64,000 bases of DNA, from NCBI GenBank assembly GCA_026397175.1, contig JAPLVK010000022.1:5689-69688 (forward strand), given 5' to 3'. The notes beneath the pieces are model-generated. The model was not told the origin of the DNA, searched no databases, and saw nothing but the letters and a program-made list of their open reading frames with translations. Source of the DNA: Candidatus Berkelbacteria bacterium. Its GTDB lineage: Bacteria; Patescibacteriota; UBA1384; DTJR01. The translations under genes were made by a program, and so were the position numbers. Below, piece by piece: positions 4,940-61,863 of the stretch. Numbering within the stretch: position 1 is the first letter of the stretch; every line of letters starts with the position of its first letter.

Positions 4940-5018
4940 GGGAAATTCAAATTCAATTGTCTAACTGTTTAATTACTTTTCTTGCATTTTTATTTTAAAA
5001 AGTGCTAGAATTAAATTA

Positions 5019-5585
5019 ATGAATAAAATACTTGCTGCACTAATTATTATTTTATCTCTGACTGTCCCATTTTCGTCTGTTTTGGCAGATGGAAAATTAA
5101 CGAATTTCCCGGTTGGATCGTGCAAAACAATAAACGGGGGAATGTGGCAGCAACTCTCCGATGGAACTTGGGCTGACCCAAACGATAAAATCAACACCTG
5201 TAAATTAGGTGGAGCGGGTGGGATTGGTAACCAAAACTACAATGCGTGGACTCAAGCGGGTTACACTCAAAACCAGCTTGGGAATATGACTTATCAGCAA
5301 TGGTTTAACATGTGTGTTTTGACTCAAAGTTTAGTGGCTAGGCCAGAATGCCAAAATTATAACGGCAGTAATTATTACGGAAATGGCGGTTATGGCGGAT
5401 ATAACAATAACAGTGGGTACAATAATGCTTTGTGGTATCCGGAAATGGGACGAGCCACGAACTCTTTCTTCTATTCGGACGATAATCTCGCAATAAGCGC
5501 GCAAATTCCGGCGGAAAACACAACTGTGAGCTCAATTTTAGCCGGTGTAGCCATGGGCTGGATGTTTAATCAGTGGACTAAATAA
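5019..5585 (+). CDS. Secreted hypothetical protein (Asn/Gly/Tyr-rich)
   Basis: 188-aa ORF with N-terminal signal peptide. Confidence 0.65.
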   Translation: MNKILAALIIILSLTVPFSSVLADGKLTNFPVGSCKTINGGMWQQLSDGTWADPNDKINTCKLGGAGGIGNQNYNAWTQAGYTQNQLGNMTYQQWFNMCVLTQSLVARPECQNYNGSNYYGNGGYGGYNNNSGYNNALWYPEMGRATNSFFYSDDNLAISAQIPAENTTVSSILAGVAMGWMFNQWTK

Positions 5586-5586
5586 A

Positions 5587-6429
5587 CTAGATCTTACTTT
5601 TTAAAATCGAAATGAGAGCGGTCCATTGATATTTATTGAGTTCTTCGGGGCGTTGATCTAAATTAAATCCGCATTTCTTAGCAATCCCCTCTGCTTCCTT
5701 CGGTAAAATTTTTAAATTGTTAAAAAGAGAATTTTTGATTTTTTTCCGTTTTGAAGAAAACGCCGACTTGATGATTTTCAAGGCGACTTTTGCCGGTACA
5801 CTTAATTGATTAATGTTGGAAATAACAATCACGGCCGAATCAACATGGGGTGGGGGATAAAACAGATTACGCGAAACATTGTGGAGCAATTTAGTTTCAC
5901 CGAATTGTTCGATAAAAACCGTTAGAATCCCCCGATTTGAATCGTTCGGTTTTGCTAAAATCCGATCGGCCACTTCTTTTTGAAGCATTAGAACCATTGT
6001 TTGGGGCAAGGTCTTTGAGACACTCAAAAGAGAAATTATTGATGCCGCCCCAATATTATACGGAAGGTTTGCGACAACTTTAAAAGGGGACTCAACAATC
6101 AGACCAGGGATTAGAAGCAAAGCGTCTTGGCAAATAATTTTTGTATTTTTGTTCTCGAATCGATTTAATAAATATTGATGAAGATCGCGGTCTTTTTCGA
6201 CCAAAACAATTTCTTTGGTTTTTGATTTGATAAGTTCTTGTGTCAAAACGCCAAGTCCCGGCCCAATTTCTAGAACAGAATCACTGGGGGACAGCAGTGC
6301 CGCTTCAACCATTTTTTTTGCGACGGTATCGGAAATTAAAAAATGTTGGCCTAACGACTTTTTGGCACCACCGTATAAGGAAATAAATTTTTTGATTTGA
6401 GAGAGTTTGGACGGATCAAAATCTTCCAT
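5587..6429 (-). CDS. rsmA: 16S rRNA adenine dimethyltransferase KsgA
   Basis: KKSLGQHFL, LEIGPGLGVLT, VANLPYNI, MLQKEVADRI, PPPHVDSAV; start taken at ATG 6429. Confidence 0.95.
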   Translation of the reverse strand: MEDFDPSKLSQIKKFISLYGGAKKSLGQHFLISDTVAKKMVEAALLSPSDSVLEIGPGLGVLTQELIKSKTKEIVLVEKDRDLHQYLLNRFENKNTKIICQDALLLIPGLIVESPFKVVANLPYNIGAASIISLLSVSKTLPQTMVLMLQKEVADRILAKPNDSNRGILTVFIEQFGETKLLHNVSRNLFYPPPHVDSAVIVISNINQLSVPAKVALKIIKSAFSSKRKKIKNSLFNNLKILPKEAEGIAKKCGFNLDQRPEELNKYQWTALISILKSKI

Positions 6430-6431
6430 CT

Positions 6432-7388
6432 TTATTGTTTTAATTGCTCTACCAAAACCATCGCTCCCTTGCCAGTCCAATTATATCTTAGCTCATCCAA
6501 AACGCCATGGGATAAGTCCAGAACGACATCACCATCGTGATCGGCCGATCCCCAAGTACAGTCAACGGTTTTAATAATTTGCGCCCCATTTGCTTGATTC
6601 GTGATACGAAGGGTGGTTCCTTTTTTGTAGTTTGCGCTGATAACGGAACAATTTGAGGGATTATAAACCGTGGCGTAACCACGCTCCGAACTTAAAACAA
6701 TGACTTTGGTTCCGATCTTAATAATTTCGTCCTGCGGCTTATCAACAATTTCATTTTTTTGCAGCGTTTTTGAGACATCAATTCCGTCCTCGCGGCGAAC
6801 GAGGTAGAGGAGTCGTCTTTTTCCGGTTTTACCAATTTGCGAAGTTGTTTGTTTGCCTCGCTCTAGGGTCGGATCGTCAATTTTTTTTGTCTGATAGGGG
6901 AGTGTCTCAAAGTTCTCAATTTCAGCCAGAGAAACCCTTGTAATTTTAATTAAATTGTCTGCGGGCTCGGAGCCAAGCGCCGGAGAAACCATATCTTCTT
7001 TGGCTAATTGAATACTGGCTCCAGAGAGGATTTCCCCTACTCCCCTCTTAAAAGAATAAACGCCGTATGTTTTTTTGCCGTCTTGAATCGTATATTTTGG
7101 GGCTTTAAAAACCGCCTGGATGCCGCCGATGGCAAATTGTGGGTCCATAATAGTCACGATTTTTTGGGTTTGATCGAAAAAAATATTTTGCAAAATCCCC
7201 TCACCTGGCAGTTGATATTTGATTTCGGGCTCGACAATTTTTTCATCATTTTGAAAATTAGCCAGGGCGATTGCTCGGCCGATTATAAAATTTTTGTCCA
7301 TATTTTCACTTTGCGCATTACAAAAATTTGTGCCCCAAAATAGACCAAAGAAAACTAAAATTAATATTTTATAATTCAATGACTTCAA
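6432..7388 (-). CDS. Secreted G5-domain protein (YabE/Rpf-like, DPBB-type C-terminus)
   Basis: Signal peptide; G5-like DDPTLERGKQ...PQDEIIKIGTK; C-terminal ATVY...LRITN...LDLS; adjacent to ksgA. Confidence 0.7.
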   Translation of the reverse strand: MKSLNYKILILVFFGLFWGTNFCNAQSENMDKNFIIGRAIALANFQNDEKIVEPEIKYQLPGEGILQNIFFDQTQKIVTIMDPQFAIGGIQAVFKAPKYTIQDGKKTYGVYSFKRGVGEILSGASIQLAKEDMVSPALGSEPADNLIKITRVSLAEIENFETLPYQTKKIDDPTLERGKQTTSQIGKTGKRRLLYLVRREDGIDVSKTLQKNEIVDKPQDEIIKIGTKVIVLSSERGYATVYNPSNCSVISANYKKGTTLRITNQANGAQIIKTVDCTWGSADHDGDVVLDLSHGVLDELRYNWTGKGAMVLVEQLKQ

Positions 7389-9240
7389 TTTGGTTCTCCG
7401 GTAATTCTTGCAAAAATCTAGATGGAATACAGGGCTGCAACTCGCCGTATAAAAATCTGGTTTTGGCGTGGGAAATATACAAGCGGTCCATAGCTCTGGT
7501 CATCCCAACATAAAACAATCGCCGCTCTTCTTCAAGCTCAAATTGATCTTCCATGGATTGAGAATGCGGAAAAAGTCCTTCCTCTAGCCCCGAAATAAAA
7601 ACGACGGGAAATTCCAAGCCCTTGGCGGCATGCACAGTCATTAGGGTCAGCGATTTTTCTTTTTCTTGCAATTCGTCAATATCGGAAATCAAAGCAACCG
7701 AGTCCAAAAATGTTGGTAAATTATTGTAAGCGCTTGCGGCATTTTTGAGCTCTTTTAAGTTTTCGAGCCGTGACTCCGATTCGATTGATCCATCACTTAG
7801 ATATTCTTCGTAGCCAGTGAGTTTTAAGACCTTATCTATAATTAAATCAGGTCGTTGATTTGAACTGGCAAAATCCTTGATCTTATCTAGCATGTTAGAA
7901 AATTCCTTGTACTTGGGAATTTCTTCTTTGGCTTTGTCTAGATCAATTGAAATTTTAGCCAAGGTCTTTTCGCCAATCCCCCGCGAAGGTGAGTTGACCG
8001 CACGAGAAAGCGCAATAAAATCGTTTGGATTTTGCAGAAGCATTAAATAAGCCAAAACATCTTTAATTTCCTTGCGAGCGTAAAATTTTAGTCCACCGAT
8101 TATGCGATACGGAACGCCGCGCGAGATTAACGATTCCTCAAATGCACGGGACTGCGCATTGGTGCGATACAAAACGACAAAGTCACAAAGTTCTTTTTTT
8201 TCTCCTTGAACGAGCGATTCGATCTCATCTAAAATAAACTCGACTTCTTCTTTTTTGGTAGGAGAATTCAAGACGATCACCGGCGCTCCCGCAACTTTCT
8301 CGGCCGTTAAATTTTTGTCAGATCGCATTTCGTTGTTTAAAATAACCGATTGAGCCGCTTTGATAATTGGCGGAGTCGAGCGATAATTCTTTTCTAAATA
8401 AATTACTTTTGCGTCAGGATAATCCTTTTTAAAGTCCAAAATATTTTGAAATTTTGCTCCGCGAAAAGAGTAGATTGATTGCCAGTCGTCCCCTATCGCG
8501 AAAATATTGCGATTTTTTTGCGCTAACAATTTTAGAAAAATATATTGCGCGTGGTTTGTGTCTTGATATTCGTCAACCAAAATATATTTAAATATATTTT
8601 GATAATTTTCTAAAATTTCAGGGTGTTTTTGAAATATCTCGACTGTTTTCATAATCAGATCGTCAAAATCCAGCGCGTCAGCTTTTTTTAAAATTTCTTC
8701 GTAGCGCAAATAGACCTTGGAGACAATTTTCTGGAAATGATCAAAGGCAAATGACTGGTATGCCTTGGCAGAAACCAACTCACCTTTGGCACCAGAAATA
8801 AATGAACGAATTGCTTTTGGGTTATATTTTTTTTCTTCGATTTCGAGATCCTTCATCGCCCTTTTAACTGCGCGCAGAGAATCGTCTGAATCGTAAATTG
8901 TAAAATTTTGCGAGTAGCCAAAAAGTTTGATTTCTCGGCGTAAAATTTTGACGCAAATGGAATGGAAAGTTCCAAGCCAAGGCAAGCGGGAGGGAAGCTT
9001 CCAGCTGTCAGCCGTCAGCAATTTACCGATTCGATCTGACATCTCACCCGCAGCTTTGTTGGTGAAAGTGACGGCTAGAATATTTTGGGGCGAGACCATT
9101 TTGCCGTACATCAAATAGGCGATGCGATGAGTCAAGGCCCTGGTTTTGCCGCTTCCGGCACCAGCAAGAATTAAAACAGGACCTTCGGTTTTTAAGACCG
9201 CTTCCTTCTGACTTTCGTTAAGTGAGCGCAAAACATCCAT
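7369..9240 (-). CDS. pcrA: ATP-dependent DNA helicase PcrA/UvrD
   Basis: LAGAGSGKT, TFTNKAA, VDEYQD, QSIYSFRGA, NYRST, LMTVHAAKGLEF, EEERRLFYV. Confidence 0.95.
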   Translation of the reverse strand: MDVLRSLNESQKEAVLKTEGPVLILAGAGSGKTRALTHRIAYLMYGKMVSPQNILAVTFTNKAAGEMSDRIGKLLTADSWKLPSRLPWLGTFHSICVKILRREIKLFGYSQNFTIYDSDDSLRAVKRAMKDLEIEEKKYNPKAIRSFISGAKGELVSAKAYQSFAFDHFQKIVSKVYLRYEEILKKADALDFDDLIMKTVEIFQKHPEILENYQNIFKYILVDEYQDTNHAQYIFLKLLAQKNRNIFAIGDDWQSIYSFRGAKFQNILDFKKDYPDAKVIYLEKNYRSTPPIIKAAQSVILNNEMRSDKNLTAEKVAGAPVIVLNSPTKKEEVEFILDEIESLVQGEKKELCDFVVLYRTNAQSRAFEESLISRGVPYRIIGGLKFYARKEIKDVLAYLMLLQNPNDFIALSRAVNSPSRGIGEKTLAKISIDLDKAKEEIPKYKEFSNMLDKIKDFASSNQRPDLIIDKVLKLTGYEEYLSDGSIESESRLENLKELKNAASAYNNLPTFLDSVALISDIDELQEKEKSLTLMTVHAAKGLEFPVVFISGLEEGLFPHSQSMEDQFELEEERRLFYVGMTRAMDRLYISHAKTRFLYGELQPCIPSRFLQELPENQIEVIEL

Positions 9241-9339
9241 AAAAATAAGAGTAGCAAGTTTGGGGAGGGGATGCAATTTTAGAGGGACAAAAATTATTAT
9301 TTACAGAACTTACGCAACGAAGCCCAATTTTTTGTTGAT

Positions 9340-9419
9340 AACACACTAAAGTGTGGGCTACATTTCCCCTCGTAGGCCATGCTTTAGCATGATAATCAAC
9401 ACACTAAAGTGTGGACTAC
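9340..9419. repeat. Pair of REP-like direct repeats AACACACTAAAGTGTGGRCTAC
   Basis: Copies at ~9340-9361 and ~9398-9419, each with a CACAC/GTGTG hairpin. Confidence 0.6.
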
Positions 9420-9442
9420 GGCATTTTGCGTAAGCGCTGTTA

Positions 9443-9471
9443 TTGACTTTTTTGGGTGAAAGTGCTAATAT
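9443..9471 (+). promoter_or_regulatory. Sigma70-type promoter with extended -10
   Basis: TTGACT (9443-48), 17 nt spacer, TAATAT (9466-71) preceded by TG. Confidence 0.65.
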
Positions 9472-9476
9472 CTGGG

Positions 9477-9912
9477 CAATTCGAAGCGTGTTTTCGAAGG
9501 TGAGGCCGACTGGTTTGAGGTACGCTTTGGCTTGAGGATCGGTTAGGTCTGCTTTTTTTCGGCTTAACTTGAATCTCGCCTTGGCGAGTAGCCCAGTCGG
9601 GGTCAGCTTGGTTTGAAAGACCGTCTGCAGTCCCTGGTATCTAATGATCCAGCGGAGACGGTTTTGGTCGGCAGGAATAGCGGTCTGTTGAGGACTTCCT
9701 CCGGACCCCAAGTCCAACAAGCTGAAAAGTGACTGATTTTGAGTGGGCGCGCCAATCACCTTTTTGGTCATATAGACCTGGGTGGGCTCTGTCGCTTAAA
9801 GTCAGTGAGAACACGCAAGAAGCGATTCACATTTTTCTTGATTAGTTTCTTCAAAAGATGTGATCGCACCATGGGGGCGGCTCGGAAACGAGCCGCCCCT
9901 AAATCATTTTTC
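9477..9912 (+). ncRNA. Candidate large structured non-coding RNA (unassigned)
   Basis: Own promoter, many nested helices with G-U pairs on the + strand, terminal GAAA-capped hairpin 9874-9899, no convincing + strand ORF. Confidence 0.55.
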
Positions 9913-9921
9913 AGGTTACAA

Positions 9922-9959
9922 ATTTGCGCATTTTGTCCGATCGGACAAAATGCGCAAAT
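9922..9959. repeat. 38-bp perfect palindrome centred on CGATCG
   Basis: ATTTGCGCATTTTGTCCGATCGGACAAAATGCGCAAAT. Confidence 0.9.
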
Positions 9960-10115
9960 CATAATCTATCGACAAATATTAATCTCGCATTCGCGAAGGA
10001 TTCTTCCCCCGAACTAGATCCGAGATCAATGACTAAAATTGGAGTATGCAAAGATTAAACCCTTACAAAGAGAATCATTTTAATAATTAGATCAATATCA
10101 TAAATATTGATATAT

Positions 10116-10147
10116 TGCACTTTTAGTACGATCGTACTAAAAGTGCA
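10116..10147. repeat. 32-bp perfect palindrome centred on CGATCG
   Basis: TGCACTTTTAGTACGATCGTACTAAAAGTGCA. Confidence 0.9.
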
Positions 10148-10297
10148 TAAGATCTAGGAGAGGATACATTAAAAAATGTTAATTTACGGAAATTTTAAAA
10201 TTTGATTTGAAACAAAAATTCTGTAGCTTGAAGTTGAAATTAAGAAGAGTAAGATATTAGATAATTAAGCAATCAACAAAGTCCTTTAGGAGGGATC

Positions 10298-12034
10298 ATG
10301 GATTTGGATAAAAAACATCACGATGCGCCGAGAGTTGTGAATATTGGAATTTGGTCTATGGCCGTTGTAGGGGCACTCGCGTTTGCAATTTCGTTGGGCG
10401 GATGGTTTTATTCGTCTGTTGAATCGCCGATTTCGGCAAGTACCTCGGCCGGGTCGGGCACATGTCCGTCTGATAAACAAATTGCGATTAATAACTATCC
10501 CGGGACCAGCAAAGAATACCATGCCCTTTTGAGCAATTCGCGCGATCAAAATTGGCGATGCTCGCTTGTCTGTAATACTTCCGGAAAATCACCCGATGAG
10601 TTTATCAAAGGGTTAACAATTGGTGGAAAACCAGTAATTATTTATAGCACAGGCGATGAATTTAAAAGTAAGGGCAGTAACATCGGTAAGGATGATTTTG
10701 ACCGAGTCGTTGTTAGCGGCGCAACAAAAGGAAAATGTGAAGGCGCGAAAACCGGATCGACAAACGGCGCAAGCATTGACTATGTAGACATAAAATATAA
10801 CGACAAAGCAGTTGAACCACTTTCGAAGAATGAAACAATAAAGGAACTTTCGCAGGCAGCCAACGCCGACACAAGCAGCAATGAGCTACCAGCACCGATT
10901 GATAATCCAGGATCATCGCCAAGCGGGACAGACAGCACGACGACACCTGGACAAAAAGATGGTGTTCCAAAAATAAAGATTGTGAAACCAGGAACGCTAG
11001 ATCCCGATGCTCCGTCGTATACAATCCAAATTTCTGGAATTGAAAAATATTCCGACAGTACAAGAAAACCCGGAGATATTAGTATAACTGCAGCATTAAG
11101 CGACACTGACAGTAAGAGTGCAAAATTTCGTAATTCTCCAATTTGCGCTAGTGCTATGACACAAGGACCGGATGGTCATTATAATATGGAGTTTACGGTT
11201 GACGGAATATGGTATAGAGCAAATAGGAGTGCAAAGATATATTATTATGCTCTCGAAGAAACGGATGGGGCTATCCCTGAACAAAATAAAAGAAAACGAT
11301 CTTCATCGGATTCACTAAATAATCCAAGATATGTCCATTATGACGGCTCCACAATCCAAATAAAATATAACGAGGAATCCCTTTATGGTGTACAAGGTAG
11401 CGAAAATCCTGTTTTAACTTCAGCACAAGAATTGCAACAACAATGGGAATCTTTCGCAAGTGCGACAAAGTTAAATAGTTCACAGATGAATCAATGCGGG
11501 GGCTTGTCTTCGGGACCAACGCAAACAACGCAGGAAGTAGCGCAACAAACAATGCAGCAGATTACAAATCGAAATGGAACAGTTACATTTAAAATTTCCG
11601 GAAAAGTGTGGTGGAATTTTGCCGGAGGGTTAGAAAGTAAAAAAGCGGTTATTTGCGCAGCAATGTGGAATACTACTGACCCAGACGATCCTAAAAAAAG
11701 AAGTAAGATACCAAGCGAAGAATTCCAAAAGGTCAAGGCAAATACCAATGGAACATTTAGTATTGATTTGCCTGTAGCCATAAGGAATCTAAGGGGGCTA
11801 AGCATTGTTGCATTTGATCCCGGAGGAATTTATAGACCAAAATATTATTATTTCGGTCAAACTGCACTTGCTATGAAAAGCTATGTTATAAATGCAGTTG
11901 ACTTAACCACAAATAATTCTGCGTATGATGTCCCCTTCAACATAGGAAATCAGCTAGATCTTCAACAGGGTTATGGTGATTCAAAAAGGTGGCGAAACGA
12001 GTTCTATTATGCAACTGGTCACTACTGCGAATAG
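10298..12034 (+). CDS. Membrane-anchored/secreted hypothetical protein
   Basis: 578-aa ORF, N-terminal TM helix, paired Cys, Ser/Thr-rich linkers, RBS AGGAGG. Confidence 0.7.
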   Translation: MDLDKKHHDAPRVVNIGIWSMAVVGALAFAISLGGWFYSSVESPISASTSAGSGTCPSDKQIAINNYPGTSKEYHALLSNSRDQNWRCSLVCNTSGKSPDEFIKGLTIGGKPVIIYSTGDEFKSKGSNIGKDDFDRVVVSGATKGKCEGAKTGSTNGASIDYVDIKYNDKAVEPLSKNETIKELSQAANADTSSNELPAPIDNPGSSPSGTDSTTTPGQKDGVPKIKIVKPGTLDPDAPSYTIQISGIEKYSDSTRKPGDISITAALSDTDSKSAKFRNSPICASAMTQGPDGHYNMEFTVDGIWYRANRSAKIYYYALEETDGAIPEQNKRKRSSSDSLNNPRYVHYDGSTIQIKYNEESLYGVQGSENPVLTSAQELQQQWESFASATKLNSSQMNQCGGLSSGPTQTTQEVAQQTMQQITNRNGTVTFKISGKVWWNFAGGLESKKAVICAAMWNTTDPDDPKKRSKIPSEEFQKVKANTNGTFSIDLPVAIRNLRGLSIVAFDPGGIYRPKYYYFGQTALAMKSYVINAVDLTTNNSAYDVPFNIGNQLDLQQGYGDSKRWRNEFYYATGHYCE

Positions 12035-12048
12035 AACACTTCGACTTG

Positions 12049-13833
12049 TTAGATTATCTTCTCGAGTTCGTCGTGTTCGATGGTTTCTTTTTTGAGCAAG
12101 AGCTCGGCTAATTTTTTGAGTTTAGTTTTGTCGTGAGTCAAAATATTCTTGGCTTTCTTCTCTGATTCCAGAATAACTTTTTCGACTTCGCTATCAATCA
12201 AAGCCGCCATTTTCTCCGAATGAACTTTATGCTCGCCTAATTCGCGACCCAAAAACACGAGCTCGTCGCGCTGGGCCACAACAACCGGCCCGATGGCCTC
12301 GCTCATACCATAAACCTGAACCATATCTTTGGCAATTTTTGTGGCGCGTTCCAGATCGTTTGAAGCGCCGGTGGTCAATTTATTAAAAATCATTTTTTCG
12401 GCAACGCGTCCGGCCAAAAGTTGGGCAATATCGTTTTCGAAGTCCTCTTGCGATCTCATATAACGGTCTTCGTTTGGCATACTCCAAGTGTAGCCAAGCG
12501 CCATACCTCGGGAAATAATCGAGACCTTTTGCAGCGATTCATCGAGTTTTAAGGCCTTACCGACAATAGCGTGGCCGGACTCGTGGTAAGCGGCAATTTT
12601 CTTTTCTTCATTTGACATAACCTTACTTCTTCGCTCGGGGCCGAGAGTTACCTTCTCGACGGACTCCATAAAATTGAGCTCTGTGATGGTTTTTTGACCT
12701 TTTCTGGCCGCTAAAATAGCCGCTTCATTGACAACATTTTTTAAATCGGCGCCGCTCATACCCACAGTGTTTGAGGCAACTCGGGAAATATCAACTGATT
12801 TTTCGACCGGTTTGTTGCGCATGTGAATCTGCAAAATTTCTACCCGTTCTTTTTTGTCGGGCAGCGATAAAACCACTCGGCGGTCAAATCTACCCGGACG
12901 AAGCAGCGCCGGATCTAAAACATCCGGGCGGTTGGTGGCGGCAAGTATAATCACCCTTGTGTCGGTCTCAAAGCCATCCATCTCTACCAAAATCTGGTTT
13001 AGGGTCTGCTCGCGCTCGTCGTGGCTTCCGCCTAACCCCGCGCCTCTCTGGCGGCCAATAGCATCAAGTTCATCAATAAAAATAACGCACGGGGCGTTTC
13101 GTTTGGCTTTGTTGAACATGTCTCGGACTCTGCTTGCGCCCACACCGACAAACATTTCTACAAATTCAGAGGCGGAAATAGAAAAAAACGGGACTCCAGC
13201 TTCACCAGCCACTGCCCTAGCCAAAAGTGTTTTTCCAACACCCGGCGCTCCAACCAGCAAAACACCTTTTGGAATCTCGGCCCCAATTAATTTAAATTTG
13301 CCCGGGCTTTTTAAAAACTCGACGACTTCCATCAGTTCTTCTTTTGGCTCTTTTAATCCGGCAACATCGTTAAAAGTCGTTTTATTTTTTAATCCGGCAA
13401 GTCGTGCGGTTGATTTACCAAAACTCATGGCCTTAACATTTGCACCTTGGGCTTGGCGAAGCATAAAGTAGATAAATCCGCCGATTAGCAAAAACGGCAA
13501 AATAACAGATAAAAATGTCGGCCAGAAAGCCCCGCTATCAGGATTTTTGACATTAATATCAACTTTGTCCGGTGTGATACCATATTTTACCAGTGAGATC
13601 CCCTGCTCCTTATAGGCCTTTAATTTTGTGCCGTCTTTGAGGGTGGCAAGAATTTCGTCGTTATTGAGATTGATTTTATCAATTGTGCCATCTTGGTAGT
13701 CCTTGGCAATTTCGGAAATAGAAACATCTTTCGGGGGTTTAGAAAAAAGCGGTCCGAAAAAATTATAAAGCGCACTCGCCAGAAGCAAGGAGATAATAAT
13801 TGTAACAATTGTTCTAATTTGATTTGGTTTCAT
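12049..13833 (-). CDS. ftsH: ATP-dependent zinc metalloprotease FtsH
   Basis: Two TM helices, [33 protein letters not shown]. Confidence 0.97.
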
Positions 13834-13871
13834 AAATCTAAAACAGATCCTGCAATATGAATTTTAAAATT

Positions 13872-13948
<77 letters not shown>

Positions 13949-14079
13949 TCATATTTAGAAGAATAGCAAATTTCCTCGAATTAGTCAATTTACAGATTAA
14001 CAAATTTTGCGAAATAGTAAAGAGCTCTTTACATTTATGGTTTTTTTTATAAAATAGAAATGTGTTAAAAGTATAAAGT

Positions 14080-14156
14080 GACAGTGTAGCTCAGATGGTT
14101 AGAGCGAGGGAATCATAACCCCTAGGTCGCTGGTTCGATTCCAGCCACTGTCACCA
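14080..14156 (+). tRNA. tRNA with CAT anticodon, most likely elongator Met
   Basis: GACAGTG...ATCATAA...TTCGATT...CACTGTCACCA cloverleaf; Ile2 is less likely because an Ile-UAU tRNA is present. Confidence 0.85.
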
Positions 14157-14232
14157 CACTTCGCCCTTCGGGCTTCGCGTGGCACAGCCACCTTCTTATT
14201 TCTGGGCTACGGGTGGCAAGCAGCCATTTTTT

Positions 14233-14643
14233 TTATAAAGTGTCGAGGGCGTGGTTGACGAGAGAGTCCGCTTCTTTGTTATCCTCTCGTCTGATATGAG
14301 AAAAATTTATCGTCCCGCCGTGTTCGGATAACTTCTGCTTAATATCTAAATAAATAACTTTTAAATTTTGATCCTTCACCTTGTATTGGCCATTTAGCTG
14401 GCGGCAAACTAATTCGGAATCCAAAAGAAAATCAATATTGGCTTCTTTTTCGTTCTCCAAAACCCACTCGAGGGCTTTTTCTATGGCCGTGTATTCTGCA
14501 ACATTATTAGTTTCGACTCCGATACACTCGCTTATTTTGTGGATAATCTTACCCGATTCAAAATCAACAATTACAATCCCGATTGCGCAAGGACCGGGAT
14601 TTCCTCTTGATCCCCCGTCTGTAAAAATTTTTAACTTCTTCAT
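14233..14643 (-). CDS. rnhA: Ribonuclease HI family protein
   Basis: FTDGGSRGNPG, TNNVAEY, DSELV, HIRREDNKEADSL; ATGA overlap with the upstream pilin gene. Confidence 0.9.
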   Translation of the reverse strand: MKKLKIFTDGGSRGNPGPCAIGIVIVDFESGKIIHKISECIGVETNNVAEYTAIEKALEWVLENEKEANIDFLLDSELVCRQLNGQYKVKDQNLKVIYLDIKQKLSEHGGTINFSHIRREDNKEADSLVNHALDTL

Positions 14644-15677
14644 GGAGTTGCAGTTGGGTTAATGTTTGGCATCTGGCAATTTTTGCCGCAGAAAACGCCG
14701 AAATCCGCAAGCCCGACATACGCGCCGGTTGACGCATCAATTTTAGCCTGTAATTTTCTTCGCGCTTCGCCGGCCTTGCCGACTGACTCAATAATAATTG
14801 TCCCGGGTTTGTCCAAAGTCGGAGGAATTATATCAGTTACATGTTTTGCGCTGATCTTGAAAAAGATATATTTAGGATTATCACCACTAATACCACTGAC
14901 CCCGTTGGCGCTTAATCGGCCAGCAGCAGTATGGGCATCGGAAATAATTTGCGCCGCTTGTGGCTTGATTTTGAGATGACATTCCGAAAGTGCTGTACAC
15001 TTATCCAGACCATTGATAGTCATTGCGTGCGAGCTTATAATATTATTTGTTTTTTCGTCCAAAAGTTGTTCTTCTCCGGTTTTACTTAAATCAACCAGTT
15101 GATAGTTGACCGCTGAAAAGACGACATCGGAATCAAAAAATTTATGATACAAGCCGTCTGTAACCGTAAAATAAAATGGTTTTGAAAAATAAATTGTTAA
15201 ATTATCGAGCGGCGTGCTGGAATTATTAATTAAATAGGATAAATCAATATCCAAGGTGTCGTCGCAAAGCAGCCGCAAGGCCTTTTGTGTAATTGCTTGC
15301 TTGGGGGCCTCTTGCCAATTATTAAAATTCCCGTCTTCGAGGTTATTCCCGACCGATAACGCCTCCATCTTGACCGAAAGATCGTAAGAAACTTTAGGTG
15401 AATCAACTGTTTTATTCGCAATCACTTGACTCGGAAGTGTTCTAAAAACAAGCGATTCCTTGCCTTGCGATCGAGCATATTTGTAGCGCAGAAGACCGTC
15501 TTCGATGCCGCTTAAAGCCGCGCGATAAGCCATCTGGCCTTCTCTGTCTTGGCCTGATTGCTTGGTCTGCTGCGAAATCATCAAAACCGCACCGGTCAAT
15601 AAAGCCGATAAGATAATACCCATGGCAATCGCGATAAGCAACGCGGATGATTTAAATTTTAATTTTGTTTTTTTCAT
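14640..15677 (-). CDS. PilX/GspK-like minor pilin
   Basis: Basic leader, SSALLIA hydrophobic helix, AYRAALSGIE, C-terminal IIIESVGKAG. Confidence 0.75.
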   Translation of the reverse strand: MKKTKLKFKSSALLIAIAMGIILSALLTGAVLMISQQTKQSGQDREGQMAYRAALSGIEDGLLRYKYARSQGKESLVFRTLPSQVIANKTVDSPKVSYDLSVKMEALSVGNNLEDGNFNNWQEAPKQAITQKALRLLCDDTLDIDLSYLINNSSTPLDNLTIYFSKPFYFTVTDGLYHKFFDSDVVFSAVNYQLVDLSKTGEEQLLDEKTNNIISSHAMTINGLDKCTALSECHLKIKPQAAQIISDAHTAAGRLSANGVSGISGDNPKYIFFKISAKHVTDIIPPTLDKPGTIIIESVGKAGEARRKLQAKIDASTGAYVGLADFGVFCGKNCQMPNINPTATP

Positions 15678-16450
15678 CAGATCGGCCTCAAATTATTAAC
15701 GGCACTGACAAAAACCCTGGTCATCGCTTTGTTTTGATCTTGGGTCGCTAATGAATTATAGAAAAGGTCTTTAAGAGCAACGGAGTAAATTTGCGTTCCG
15801 ATTTGTCCCGATGGTCCGCCACCGTAAGAGCCGTTACCGCGAATGGTAAAAAATTTTGTAACATTTTTGTAGGCATCGCTTGGTGGGGTCTTGGCAGGAT
15901 CTATTGCAGCGCAATCGTTTGAATGAATTTTTTGGGGCGGATTGGCCGGATCGTTTATGGCGTCGGTTAAAATTGTTGCTGCTACTCCGCCAACCAAATA
16001 AGTATCGTCAATCGTACCTTCGATATCTTTTGCCAAATACATTTCCTTTCTTAAAGAAAAATAACCGTATTGTCCCGTAGCATCCTTTTTCTTAAAAACC
16101 ATATTGACCCAAACCATATATTTTCCATTGTCCAAAGTGGTATTGTCTGATTTTTCAAATGTTGCAAAACCAACGGACTGGCTGATATTTTTATCAATGT
16201 TGATAAACGAATATTTTGGATCCGCAAAATCAATCGCCACAATTCTGGAAGTGCCGAAATTGGCAGATCGAACCATCAAGTTGATATAATTCTCGGTTTG
16301 TTTGGCACACTCATTGGTTTTGGAAATGTCGGTGGTGAGTTCATTTGATTTTTTAATCATGGCAAAAGAAGCCGTCGCCATCACAATAACCATCATAAAA
16401 ATAAACGACGCAACCAGAATCTCAATAAGTGTAAAGGCCTTTGTTTTCAT
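15677..16450 (-). CDS. Type IV minor pilin (PilW-like)
   Basis: MKTKA|FTLIE prepilin motif. Confidence 0.8.
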   Translation of the reverse strand: MKTKAFTLIEILVASFIFMMVIVMATASFAMIKKSNELTTDISKTNECAKQTENYINLMVRSANFGTSRIVAIDFADPKYSFINIDKNISQSVGFATFEKSDNTTLDNGKYMVWVNMVFKKKDATGQYGYFSLRKEMYLAKDIEGTIDDTYLVGGVAATILTDAINDPANPPQKIHSNDCAAIDPAKTPPSDAYKNVTKFFTIRGNGSYGGGPSGQIGTQIYSVALKDLFYNSLATQDQNKAMTRVFVSAVNNLRPI

Positions 16451-35380: not shown

Positions 35381-35455
35381 TGGTCGGCCCGGCAGGGTTC
35401 GAACCTGCGACATTTCGCTTATAAGACGAATGCTCTACCCCTGAGCTACGGGCCG
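35381..35455 (-). tRNA. tRNA-Ile (UAU)
   Basis: CGGCCCGTAGCTCAGGGGTAGAGCA TTCGT CT TAT AA GCGAA ATGTC GCAGG TTCGAAC CCTGC CGGGCCG A CCA. Confidence 0.9.
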
Positions 35456-44913: not shown

Positions 44914-44984
44914 AACATGTTGGTTTTCCGACTTTACGGTAGCGGGACTGTGACGGTATTAAACCGCGCTTGCCCAAACATGTT
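44914..44984 (-). promoter_or_regulatory. Minimal cobalamin riboswitch
   Basis: AACATGTT-TGGGCAAG...CGGTTTAATACCG...CAGTCCCGCTACCGT-AAAGTCGGAAAACC-AACATGTT fits the B12-element core; lies upstream of DUF4430. Confidence 0.75.
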
Positions 44985-61227: not shown

Positions 61228-61303
61228 TGGCACGCCGGCGGGGACTTGAACCCCGAACCTTCGGTTTTGGAGACCGCTACTCTGCCAATTGAGCTACCGG
61301 CGT
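61228..61303 (-). tRNA. tRNA-Trp (CCA), copy 2, A1-U72
   Basis: ACGCCGG TA GCTC...GCGGT CT CCA AA ACCGA...CCGGCGT G CCA. Confidence 0.93.
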
Positions 61304-61309
61304 GTTTTC

Positions 61310-61768
61310 CTACGCTGATAAGTCACTGATGATTGGGTCAGCGACAAGTAGCAGGTCAGAGAACTTAATCTTCAAGCTCGATGTCCTTTGTCCGAGGCCG
61401 CAGTAAACGGTTTCGGAATCTATCGAAGAGTCGAATGCGGTTACGAGTTGAAGCCCAAACGGCGGGATTGCTCCGATTTCCACATTCAGACGGTCTTGTA
61501 CCTCTTGGGTCGTGGCCAGATCAACCTGGGATCTCGATAGTCCGAAAGCTTTTGCTGCTTTGGATCGTGAGATTCGTTTGTCGCCTGGCAATACAGCTAA
61601 CAGCAAATTGCCGGATCGCTTGTCCTTGAGAATGATGGCCTTAACCATCTGGACATATTCTATGCCCAGCACTCGAAAAACATCATCCGTTGTTATGACC
61701 GCTTCGTGATCAATAACCTCAAACGGCAGGTTACGGTCAGTGAGGATTGCTATCAGTTTGTTTTTCAT
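61310..61768 (-). CDS. YbaK/ProXp-family aminoacyl-tRNA deacylase
   Basis: FEVIDH, MVKAIIL, LAVLPGD, IGAIPPFG, YCGLG. Confidence 0.85.
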   Translation of the reverse strand: MKNKLIAILTDRNLPFEVIDHEAVITTDDVFRVLGIEYVQMVKAIILKDKRSGNLLLAVLPGDKRISRSKAAKAFGLSRSQVDLATTQEVQDRLNVEIGAIPPFGLQLVTAFDSSIDSETVYCGLGQRTSSLKIKFSDLLLVADPIISDLSA

Positions 61769-61787
61769 GATGATCACAGGTTAAAAT

Positions 61788-61863
61788 TGGCACGCCGGCG
61801 GGGACTTGAACCCCGAACCTTCGGTTTTGGAGACCGCTACTCTGCCAATTGAGCTACCGGCGC
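61788..61863 (-). tRNA. tRNA-Trp (CCA), copy 1, G1-U72
   Basis: Identical to 61228-61303 except at position 1. Confidence 0.93.

Follow-up and report, generated by a model that had tools for sequence, protein, structure and literature searches.

Gene context of the locus

The window, by which we mean the whole stretch of 64,000 nucleotides analysed here, corresponds to positions 5689-69688 of contig C3 (JAPLVK010000022.1) in an assembly of 1.01 Mb with a GC content of 41.6% and a completeness of 93%. The locus under study, which is contained in freshwater DNA runs, encodes a candidate structured RNA, referred to below as the orphan RNA, and sits between a divergent pcrA-like gene and a gene for a 578-aa protein. 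The name of the first gene is our presumption from the helicase motifs of its product. The features surrounding the RNA are as follows, in window coordinates.

7369..9240, minus strand: divergent helicase gene, presumably pcrA/uvrD-like, ATG at 9240
9342..9361, no strand: GTAG-type REP-like repeat, copy 1, a genome-wide repeat outside the RNA
9358..9771, minus strand: antisense ORF of 137 aa, ATG at 9771
9400..9419, no strand: GTAG-type REP-like repeat, copy 2
9922..9959, no strand: palindrome with CGATCG at its centre, of which the genome has 28
10116..10147, no strand: second CGATCG-centred palindrome
10298..12034, plus strand: gene for the 578-aa protein, with an N-terminal hydrophobic segment and no Pfam family

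Homologues of the 578-aa protein adjoin pcrA in relatives, and an Atlas search with this protein returned scores of 0.80 or less throughout. One near-identical RNA contig was also seen at 11670-11835, within the 3' part of its gene. The preliminary description of this DNA had presented the RNA as flanked by REP-like repeats and CGATCG palindromes. Both are real, but they are not specific to the RNA, since they occur genome-wide (7 and 28 matches, respectively). The 28 perfect palindromes have arms of 11-25 bp with varied sequence, and REP-like repeats spaced 56-58 nt apart form similar tandem pairs upstream of both the RNase P gene (contig C12:20704-20780) and the orphan RNA (9342-9419).

Several further observations were made in this genome. 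Five reverse transcriptases are encoded in 1 Mb (C20:101930, C3:88590, C20:17167, C26:36668 and C11:22739), most of them with an avd-like ORF alongside on inspection of the ORFs, and a template/variable repeat pair is present on contig C20. GC-rich promoter-to-terminator units without long ORFs also occur at C9:17190-17580, C24:8760-9180, C24:16700-17250 and C13:14090-14560; three of them were tested, and their folds were much weaker than that of the orphan RNA. By eye, a promoter context resembling that of the orphan RNA precedes a GC-rich orphan ORF at C26:40910-40950. The window also carries a tRNA-Ile with the anticodon UAU (35381-35455, minus strand), which is unusual in bacteria, two CAU tRNAs (13872-14156), two tRNA-Trp genes (61228-61863) and, in what is a CPR genome, a match to the AdoCbl-II cobalamin riboswitch that exceeds the gathering score (44914-44984, minus strand). 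The 16S rRNA gene (C20:118350-120760) seems to contain insertions.

Predicted transcript and its architecture

The elements of the predicted transcription unit, all on the plus strand, are listed below.

9443..9471, plus strand: sigma-70-type promoter, TTGACT-17-TAATAT with TG, predicted start near 9478
9478..9911, plus strand: predicted primary transcript of about 433 nt, with RNA contigs over 9495-9856
9483..9528, plus strand: alternative 5' hairpin, mutually exclusive with P1, predicted in the nascent RNA only
9486..9816, plus strand: core of the predicted mature RNA, closed through the pairing of 9486-9495 with 9807-9816 in helix P1
9496..9505, plus strand: J1/2, a purine-rich linker of 10 nt, unpaired in the P1+P3 model
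9506..9600, plus strand: arm P2, a long hairpin, irregular and U-rich in its apical loop, outer helix probability 0.91
9603..9725, plus strand: arm P3, branched, carrying two sub-hairpins; its closing helix has a probability of about 0.5 in the full RNA
9732..9806, plus strand: arm P4, a long hairpin with a 15-bp base, gapless next to P1, probability 0.95
9822..9867, plus strand: AU-rich 3' trailer hairpin, 36% GC, into which one RNA contig extends (to 9856)
9872..9911, plus strand: GAAA-capped hairpin of 13 bp followed by an imperfect U tail, resembling an intrinsic terminator

The promoter had been described as near-consensus, and its TTGACT (9443-48), 17-nt spacing, TAATAT (9466-71) and TG extension do exist; its score of 9/12, however, is not above chance taken alone, with 2 promoter-like sites of that quality observed in the region versus 2.4 in shuffles. 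At the other end, the final hairpin pairs 9874-84 with 9889-99 through 11 Watson-Crick pairs. The preceding helix 9822-35/9853-67 is part of the MFE fold but requires a bulge, and the trailer hairpin that it forms is likely removed by processing. No credible plus-strand ORF lies in between, in agreement with the preliminary description: the core holds short ORFs only, and a 92-aa frame starting at 9739 crosses the terminator. We ruled out a hok-like type I toxin mRNA, the plus strand having no hydrophobic ORF with a ribosome-binding site, and dismissed as chance a 15-codon frame (9488-9535) that ends in YALA, which we take to recall the end of the tmRNA tag.

Within the core, most of the helices proposed in the preliminary description were recovered when checked pair by pair: 9483-94/9517-28 (12 bp, five of them G-U), 9506-13/9593-9600 (8 Watson-Crick pairs), 9603-10/9718-25 (8 Watson-Crick pairs), 9619-26/9656-63 and 9732-46/9792-9806 (15 bp, 4 G-U). 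The pairs of 9692-97/9710-15 exist as well, but the MFE fold prefers 9682-87/9702-07 plus 9690-93/9698-9701. Absent from that earlier list was P1, a 10-bp helix joining the ends of the core (9486-95/9807-16) with a pair probability of 0.99. In the model, P1 is predicted to close a nested four-way junction with the arms P2, P3 and P4, and an additional 6-bp pairing between 9599-9604 and 9704-09 is possible. The linker J1/2 includes AGGUGA, a 6-nt complement of this genome's 16S 3' tail, with no good start codon behind it.

The pairing 9506-13/9593-9600 had been interpreted as a pseudoknot with the loop of the 5' hairpin. That hairpin has a probability of about 1.0 in nascent fragments of 55 and 100 nt but of 0.0 in the full RNA, because P1 occupies the same 5' strand, and forcing it costs about 15 kcal/mol, a figure that leaves out the pseudoknot helix, as ViennaRNA cannot score pseudoknots. 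The pseudoknot is disfavoured, since the hairpin it needs is lost to P1 in the full RNA; in the predicted architecture, P1 and the four-way junction would make it unnecessary.

Strength and strand preference of the fold

The fold of the orphan RNA is stronger than expected by chance, and the plus strand is preferred. For the core (9486-9816), none of 697 dinucleotide shuffles folded as well (z -4.7), with z values of -4.2 and -6.7 in smaller shuffle runs. Plus- and minus-strand fold energies were -137.5 and -99.7 kcal/mol, respectively. A 438-nt region gave z -6.8 on the plus strand and -4.6 on the minus strand, and arms P2, P3 and P4 gave z values of -3.6, -3.9 and -4.7 on the plus strand versus -2.8, -2.6 and -2.3 on the minus strand. 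These values place the orphan RNA on a par with the RNase P RNA (z -4.45) and tmRNA (z -3.71) of the same genome. Five windows from other GC-rich intergenic units ranged from z -0.7 to -2.9 (30 shuffles each), and one of 25 random GC-matched windows folded as low as the orphan RNA.

RNA fragments from lake metatranscriptomes

The locus was found in four metatranscriptome runs of one study, which had been selected for containing the stretch. Among the matches listed, the near-identical RNA pieces cover 9519-9669 and 9666-9816 in run X8, 9495-9645 and 9666-9816 in X9, 9647-9856 in X10 and 9563-9816 in X11. In three of the four runs, all from this one study, the coverage by the unstranded contigs among the matches listed stops at 9816, the last base of P1, whereas the DNA contig X2 runs continuously across 9000-9951, past this point. 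P1 had been predicted before the RNA data were inspected. A helix of at least 10 bp with at most one G-U pair and ending at the last base occurs in 0.0001 of 20,000 shuffles, with the ends chosen from the data, and any 10-bp helix between the ends occurs in 2.1% of shuffles.

The paired 151-nt pieces, which have near-equal depth, probably represent one amplified fragment per run. The shared end at 9816 hints at a discrete 3' end, with a weight below that of a coincidence between two studies, which would itself be a weak hint. RNA is thus present over 9495-9856, in line with the transcript proposed in the preliminary description; its plus-strand assignment is another matter, as the contigs give neither strand nor expression level. 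The abundance of the RNA is not rankable because the runs were chosen for holding the stretch, and missing RNA cover elsewhere in 5000-16000 was not counted as a sign of high expression. One further run, X12 (share 0.18), covers only 9386-9556 of the unit, with no differences, and so provides no natural variants.

Comparison with known RNA classes

We compared the locus with Rfam 15 and found no match at the gathering threshold or at a meaningful E value; the best match (E 0.036) fell on the downstream palindrome. The preliminary description had anticipated a possible strong hit to a known family, and none emerged; its statement that features of tmRNA, RNase P and SRP RNA are missing was borne out, with no matching models at the locus. 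RNase P RNA type A (RF00010) resembles the orphan RNA in its similar length, terminal helix and 3' trailer, but RF00010 with its P4 core gave no match at the locus. The sole RNase P match of the genome lies on C12 (180 bits) and shows no similarity to the orphan RNA. According to the accessible part of one report, RNase P RNA occurs in divergent forms in CPR (PMC8172020). For tmRNA, including two-piece forms, ARAGORN found none in the 64-kb window, and the tmRNA of the genome is on C15 (116 bits). The SRP RNA model (RF00169, helix 8) had no match, and in this 93% complete genome neither SRP54 over the cut-off nor a TROVE/Ro60 partner of a bacterial Y RNA was found.

RF00013 (6S RNA) gave no match at the orphan RNA either. 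The two are alike in having their ends paired in a terminal helix and a long irregular duplex, but the orphan RNA is almost twice as long and branched, whereas 6S RNA is an unbranched hairpin with a central bubble. RF00013 matched only one of 40 genomes. We noted an unannotated, divergent 6S RNA candidate in this genome at C22:9248-9391 (plus strand), behind a peptidase-like gene that we take to be a site-2 protease. It folds as a bubble-containing hairpin and matches its syntenic homologue in the relative G007 (L326:1501-1639, minus strand) at E 5e-7, and this homologue has a 30-bit RF00013 match, below the Rfam cut-off. 6S RNA may go unnoticed in many genomes of this class.

RNAs associated with mobile or retroelement systems were also considered. 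A DGR template search gave no real match and one terminator look-alike, while the control template on C20 recovered its variable repeat. No reverse transcriptase adjoins the orphan RNA as in a retron, and the five in the genome look avd-linked on ORF inspection; in contrast to a retron msd, the DNA-copy strand of P4 is weakened by G-U pairs. For an OMEGA RNA, there was no HEARO match at the locus and no TnpB/Cas12f domain was found. The IS110 element of the genome, on C15 and considered as a source of a bridge or seek RNA, shows no similarity to the orphan RNA. A sponge of the CsrB/RsmZ type would be rich in GGA, of which the orphan RNA has 5 versus 6.0 expected.

Within the same broad lineage, RNAs linked to cysS, rplK and ruvB share a terminal helix and branched arms with the orphan RNA. 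In this genome, the cysS-type C-rich leader RNA lies at C10:58882-58995 (minus strand), away from cysS, and the rplK-linked C-rich RNA at C10:139-329 (minus strand), continuing into C22:139-205; the split of the rplK-type RNA at the contig break suggests that C10 and C22 adjoin. All-against-all matches connect at least 10 of 27 rplK loci. The cysS-type and rplK-linked RNAs share the C-rich element CCCCUCCUU, which could pair with ribosome-binding sites. Profiles built from the order-wide copies of these two RNAs had no match on 9301-10250. The ruvB gene is not beside the orphan RNA, and a ruvB-type profile built from four poorly aligned sequences had no match in the genome.

Among RNAs described in other bacteria, the nearest in kind are Ms1, an RNA of about 300 nt in Actinobacteria that binds RNA polymerase and is narrowly conserved, as stated in the accessible part of its report (PMC9130861), and CoRP, a 516-nt RNA of Corynebacterium that binds RNA polymerase and is cut into discrete fragments, according to the portion of text available (PMC11077062). 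As far as these portions go, both resemble the orphan RNA in being intergenic, 300-500 nt long, structured and narrowly conserved, but they have a central bubble and two short end hairpins where the orphan RNA has a predicted four-way junction, and they have homologues across a genus, whereas the orphan RNA had none found and shows no sequence or Rfam match to them. The GC-IGR candidates are, in the excerpt seen of that study, likewise long, GC-rich, helix-dense intergenic units of an AT-richer genome, but their motifs have several representatives with covariation and the orphan RNA has one representative (PMC11109978). In the literature as far as accessible, no paper described such an RNA in CPR, and motif tables in the supplements of comparative ncRNA screens, one of them on CPR, could hold a relative.

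Distribution

The orphan RNA is single-copy in its genome. In all seven same-family genomes, the gap between pcrA and the 578-aa gene is about 89-336 bp, and in one same-order genome the gap to the homologue is about 199 bp, compared with 1,057 bp here. The search across CPR genomes suggested in the preliminary description yielded no homologue, nor did searches of viruses, plasmids and metagenomes. BLAST found none in 60 relatives or in 161 genomes of the class, a set without a genome of the same genus, and its matches of 22-31 nt in 11 of 400 phylum genomes all lay inside ORFs. With single-sequence models, R1 gave weak matches in 7 of 150 cases, all seven inside ORFs, R2 gave none in 39 and 150, and R3 none in 150. 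A pattern scan of 185,579 genomes returned 86 loci with nothing to support them beyond the pattern itself, and viral pattern scans returned 4, 0, 0, 101, 0 and 4 loci, none homologous (100 of the 101 inspected). Phages gave a single 30-nt match, outside the orphan RNA, and plasmids none. Metagenomes held no relative of the 578-aa protein; a metagenome scan with PcrA (2 of 64 parts, top identity 59%) gave 80 loci, and the 15 examined had no orphan RNA match.

As a control, the single cysS-type RNA sequence of this genome was used as the query in nhmmer and BLAST and recovered its homologues at 6 of the 10 loci from the order, among them all 5 from the same family. An RNA as conserved in the family as the cysS type should therefore have been detected, with the proviso that these genomes are 82-95% complete. 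The simpler reading is that the unit was gained in this lineage rather than lost elsewhere.

Alternative explanations

The main rival is that the RNA derives from a mobile element or phage, as cargo or relic. It would be of the scaffold or guide type, with its protein partner lost or located elsewhere, and would still be transcribed while being of little use to the host. The enlarged spacer relative to all seven same-family genomes is in keeping with this, as are the many GC-rich promoter-to-terminator units of the genome and its two Y1 transposase/RAYT-like genes, one IS110 element and five avd-linked-looking reverse transcriptases. We nevertheless regard it as unlikely, given a single copy with no match in phages, plasmids or viral pattern scans, no TnpB/Cas12f domain, no real DGR match in a search whose control worked, and a P4 whose DNA-copy strand is weakened by G-U pairs (z -2.3 versus -4.7), unlike a retron msd. 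Improbable, in our judgement, is a base-pairing regulator or translation-machinery decoy, with the linker acting on the 16S tail and a C-rich stretch on ribosome-binding sites. The AGGUGA match to the 16S 3' end, the C-rich element CCCCUCCUU of two conserved RNAs of the lineage and the C-rich stretch of the orphan RNA at 9696-9709 speak for such a role, but a 6-nt match is common by chance, 9696-9709 is paired in the MFE fold, the cysS and rplK profiles do not match the locus, and only four 14-mers of the orphan RNA recur exactly elsewhere in the genome.

Another reading is a leader or attenuator acting in cis, where switching from one of the two folds, 5' hairpin or P1, to the other would set the level of read-through into the 578-aa gene. 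It could draw on the two mutually exclusive helices, the imperfect U tail of the terminator and the gene being on the same strand. That gene, however, starts about 390 nt past the terminator and is carried by relatives without the orphan RNA, neither fold overlaps the terminator hairpin and no riboswitch matched, which makes this reading very improbable. We give slightly less credence still to the proposal that the antisense ORF is the real gene, with an mRNA whose 5' end would be 9816 and with an incidental fold. The RNA contigs are strandless, the ATG at 9771 has 9816 at a distance of 45 nt on its upstream side, an ORF as long as this arises in only 6.9% of block-wise shuffles, and its codon score is still within the range of true genes, among their lowest 5-9%. 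On the other side, the plus-strand fold is much stronger, the promoter scan of the region found no promoter-like site on the minus strand, and the ORF has no Pfam family, matched only itself among 5.8 billion proteins, and matched itself and one tandem-repeat artefact among 1.84 billion representatives. A conserved minus-strand protein, which the preliminary description had named as the competing possibility, is thus not indicated, the ORF having no credible homologue, and it is probably not a gene. The size, the multi-way junctions and the possible pairing 9599-9604/9704-09 would also suit a catalytic RNA of an undescribed type. This is the least probable of the readings: no Rfam ribozyme or intron matched up to E 10, the orphan RNA interrupts no gene, and by eye it shows neither the order of helices and the A-rich junctions that mark group I introns nor the domain V of group II introns.

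A probable lineage-limited structured RNA

The orphan RNA is probably a real, expressed and uncatalogued structured RNA of about 330-340 nt that belongs among the large orphan structured ncRNAs of bacteria and has no family. OLE, GOLLD, ROOL and HEARO are representatives of such large orphan structured ncRNAs. The preliminary description had proposed a large ncRNA of unknown class. Its view of a separately transcribed, structured and uncatalogued RNA stands, given the fold, the lack of an Rfam match, the housekeeping RNAs encoded elsewhere and the RNA fragments; its length of about 420 nt gives way to a likely mature form of roughly 330-340 nt with 9816 as its last base, and the word class is premature, no second member having been found. 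Our tentative preference, at somewhat less than even confidence, is for a lineage-limited, stand-alone ncRNA gene whose product would be trimmed at the 3' end, would fold around a four-way junction and, to judge from its anatomy, would act in trans by serving a protein as decoy or scaffold.

Judged by the promoter consensus, transcription would be initiated by sigma-70 near 9478. The transient 5' hairpin is predicted to sequester the 5' strand of P1 until its partner has been transcribed, whereupon P1 would close P2, P3 and P4. Termination would take place near 9905-9911, and the AU-rich trailer would then be trimmed by nucleases that may halt at the P1/P4 helix, at 9816, the end seen in three of four runs. 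Taken jointly, these steps of initiation, hairpin switch, P1 closure, termination and 3' trimming are rather probable. A nucleic-acid-binding protein could then find a decoy or scaffold in the long, irregular arm duplexes and the unpaired strands of the junction. By analogy with Ms1 and CoRP, RNA polymerase would be the first candidate for this protein, though with quite a low probability, and a second polymerase-binding RNA is not needed in a genome that already encodes a 6S-like RNA.

Having a single representative and no partner, the orphan RNA is a lead rather than a class. As an RNA probably expressed in the field, with what may be a discrete end, and from a reduced CPR genome, it is a concrete target for probing and cryo-EM and is easy to synthesise. 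Large structured RNAs are uncommon in bacteria, and a number of them have proved to be catalysts or polymerase regulators. It is conceivable, if somewhat unlikely, that the orphan RNA is the founder of a new class of processed, four-armed RNAs of about 330 nt in variable slots of CPR chromosomes. If true, such a class would give a symbiont with a genome of 1 Mb, which apparently has no SRP, one more RNA machine or polymerase-binding decoy in addition to RNase P, tmRNA and 6S RNA.
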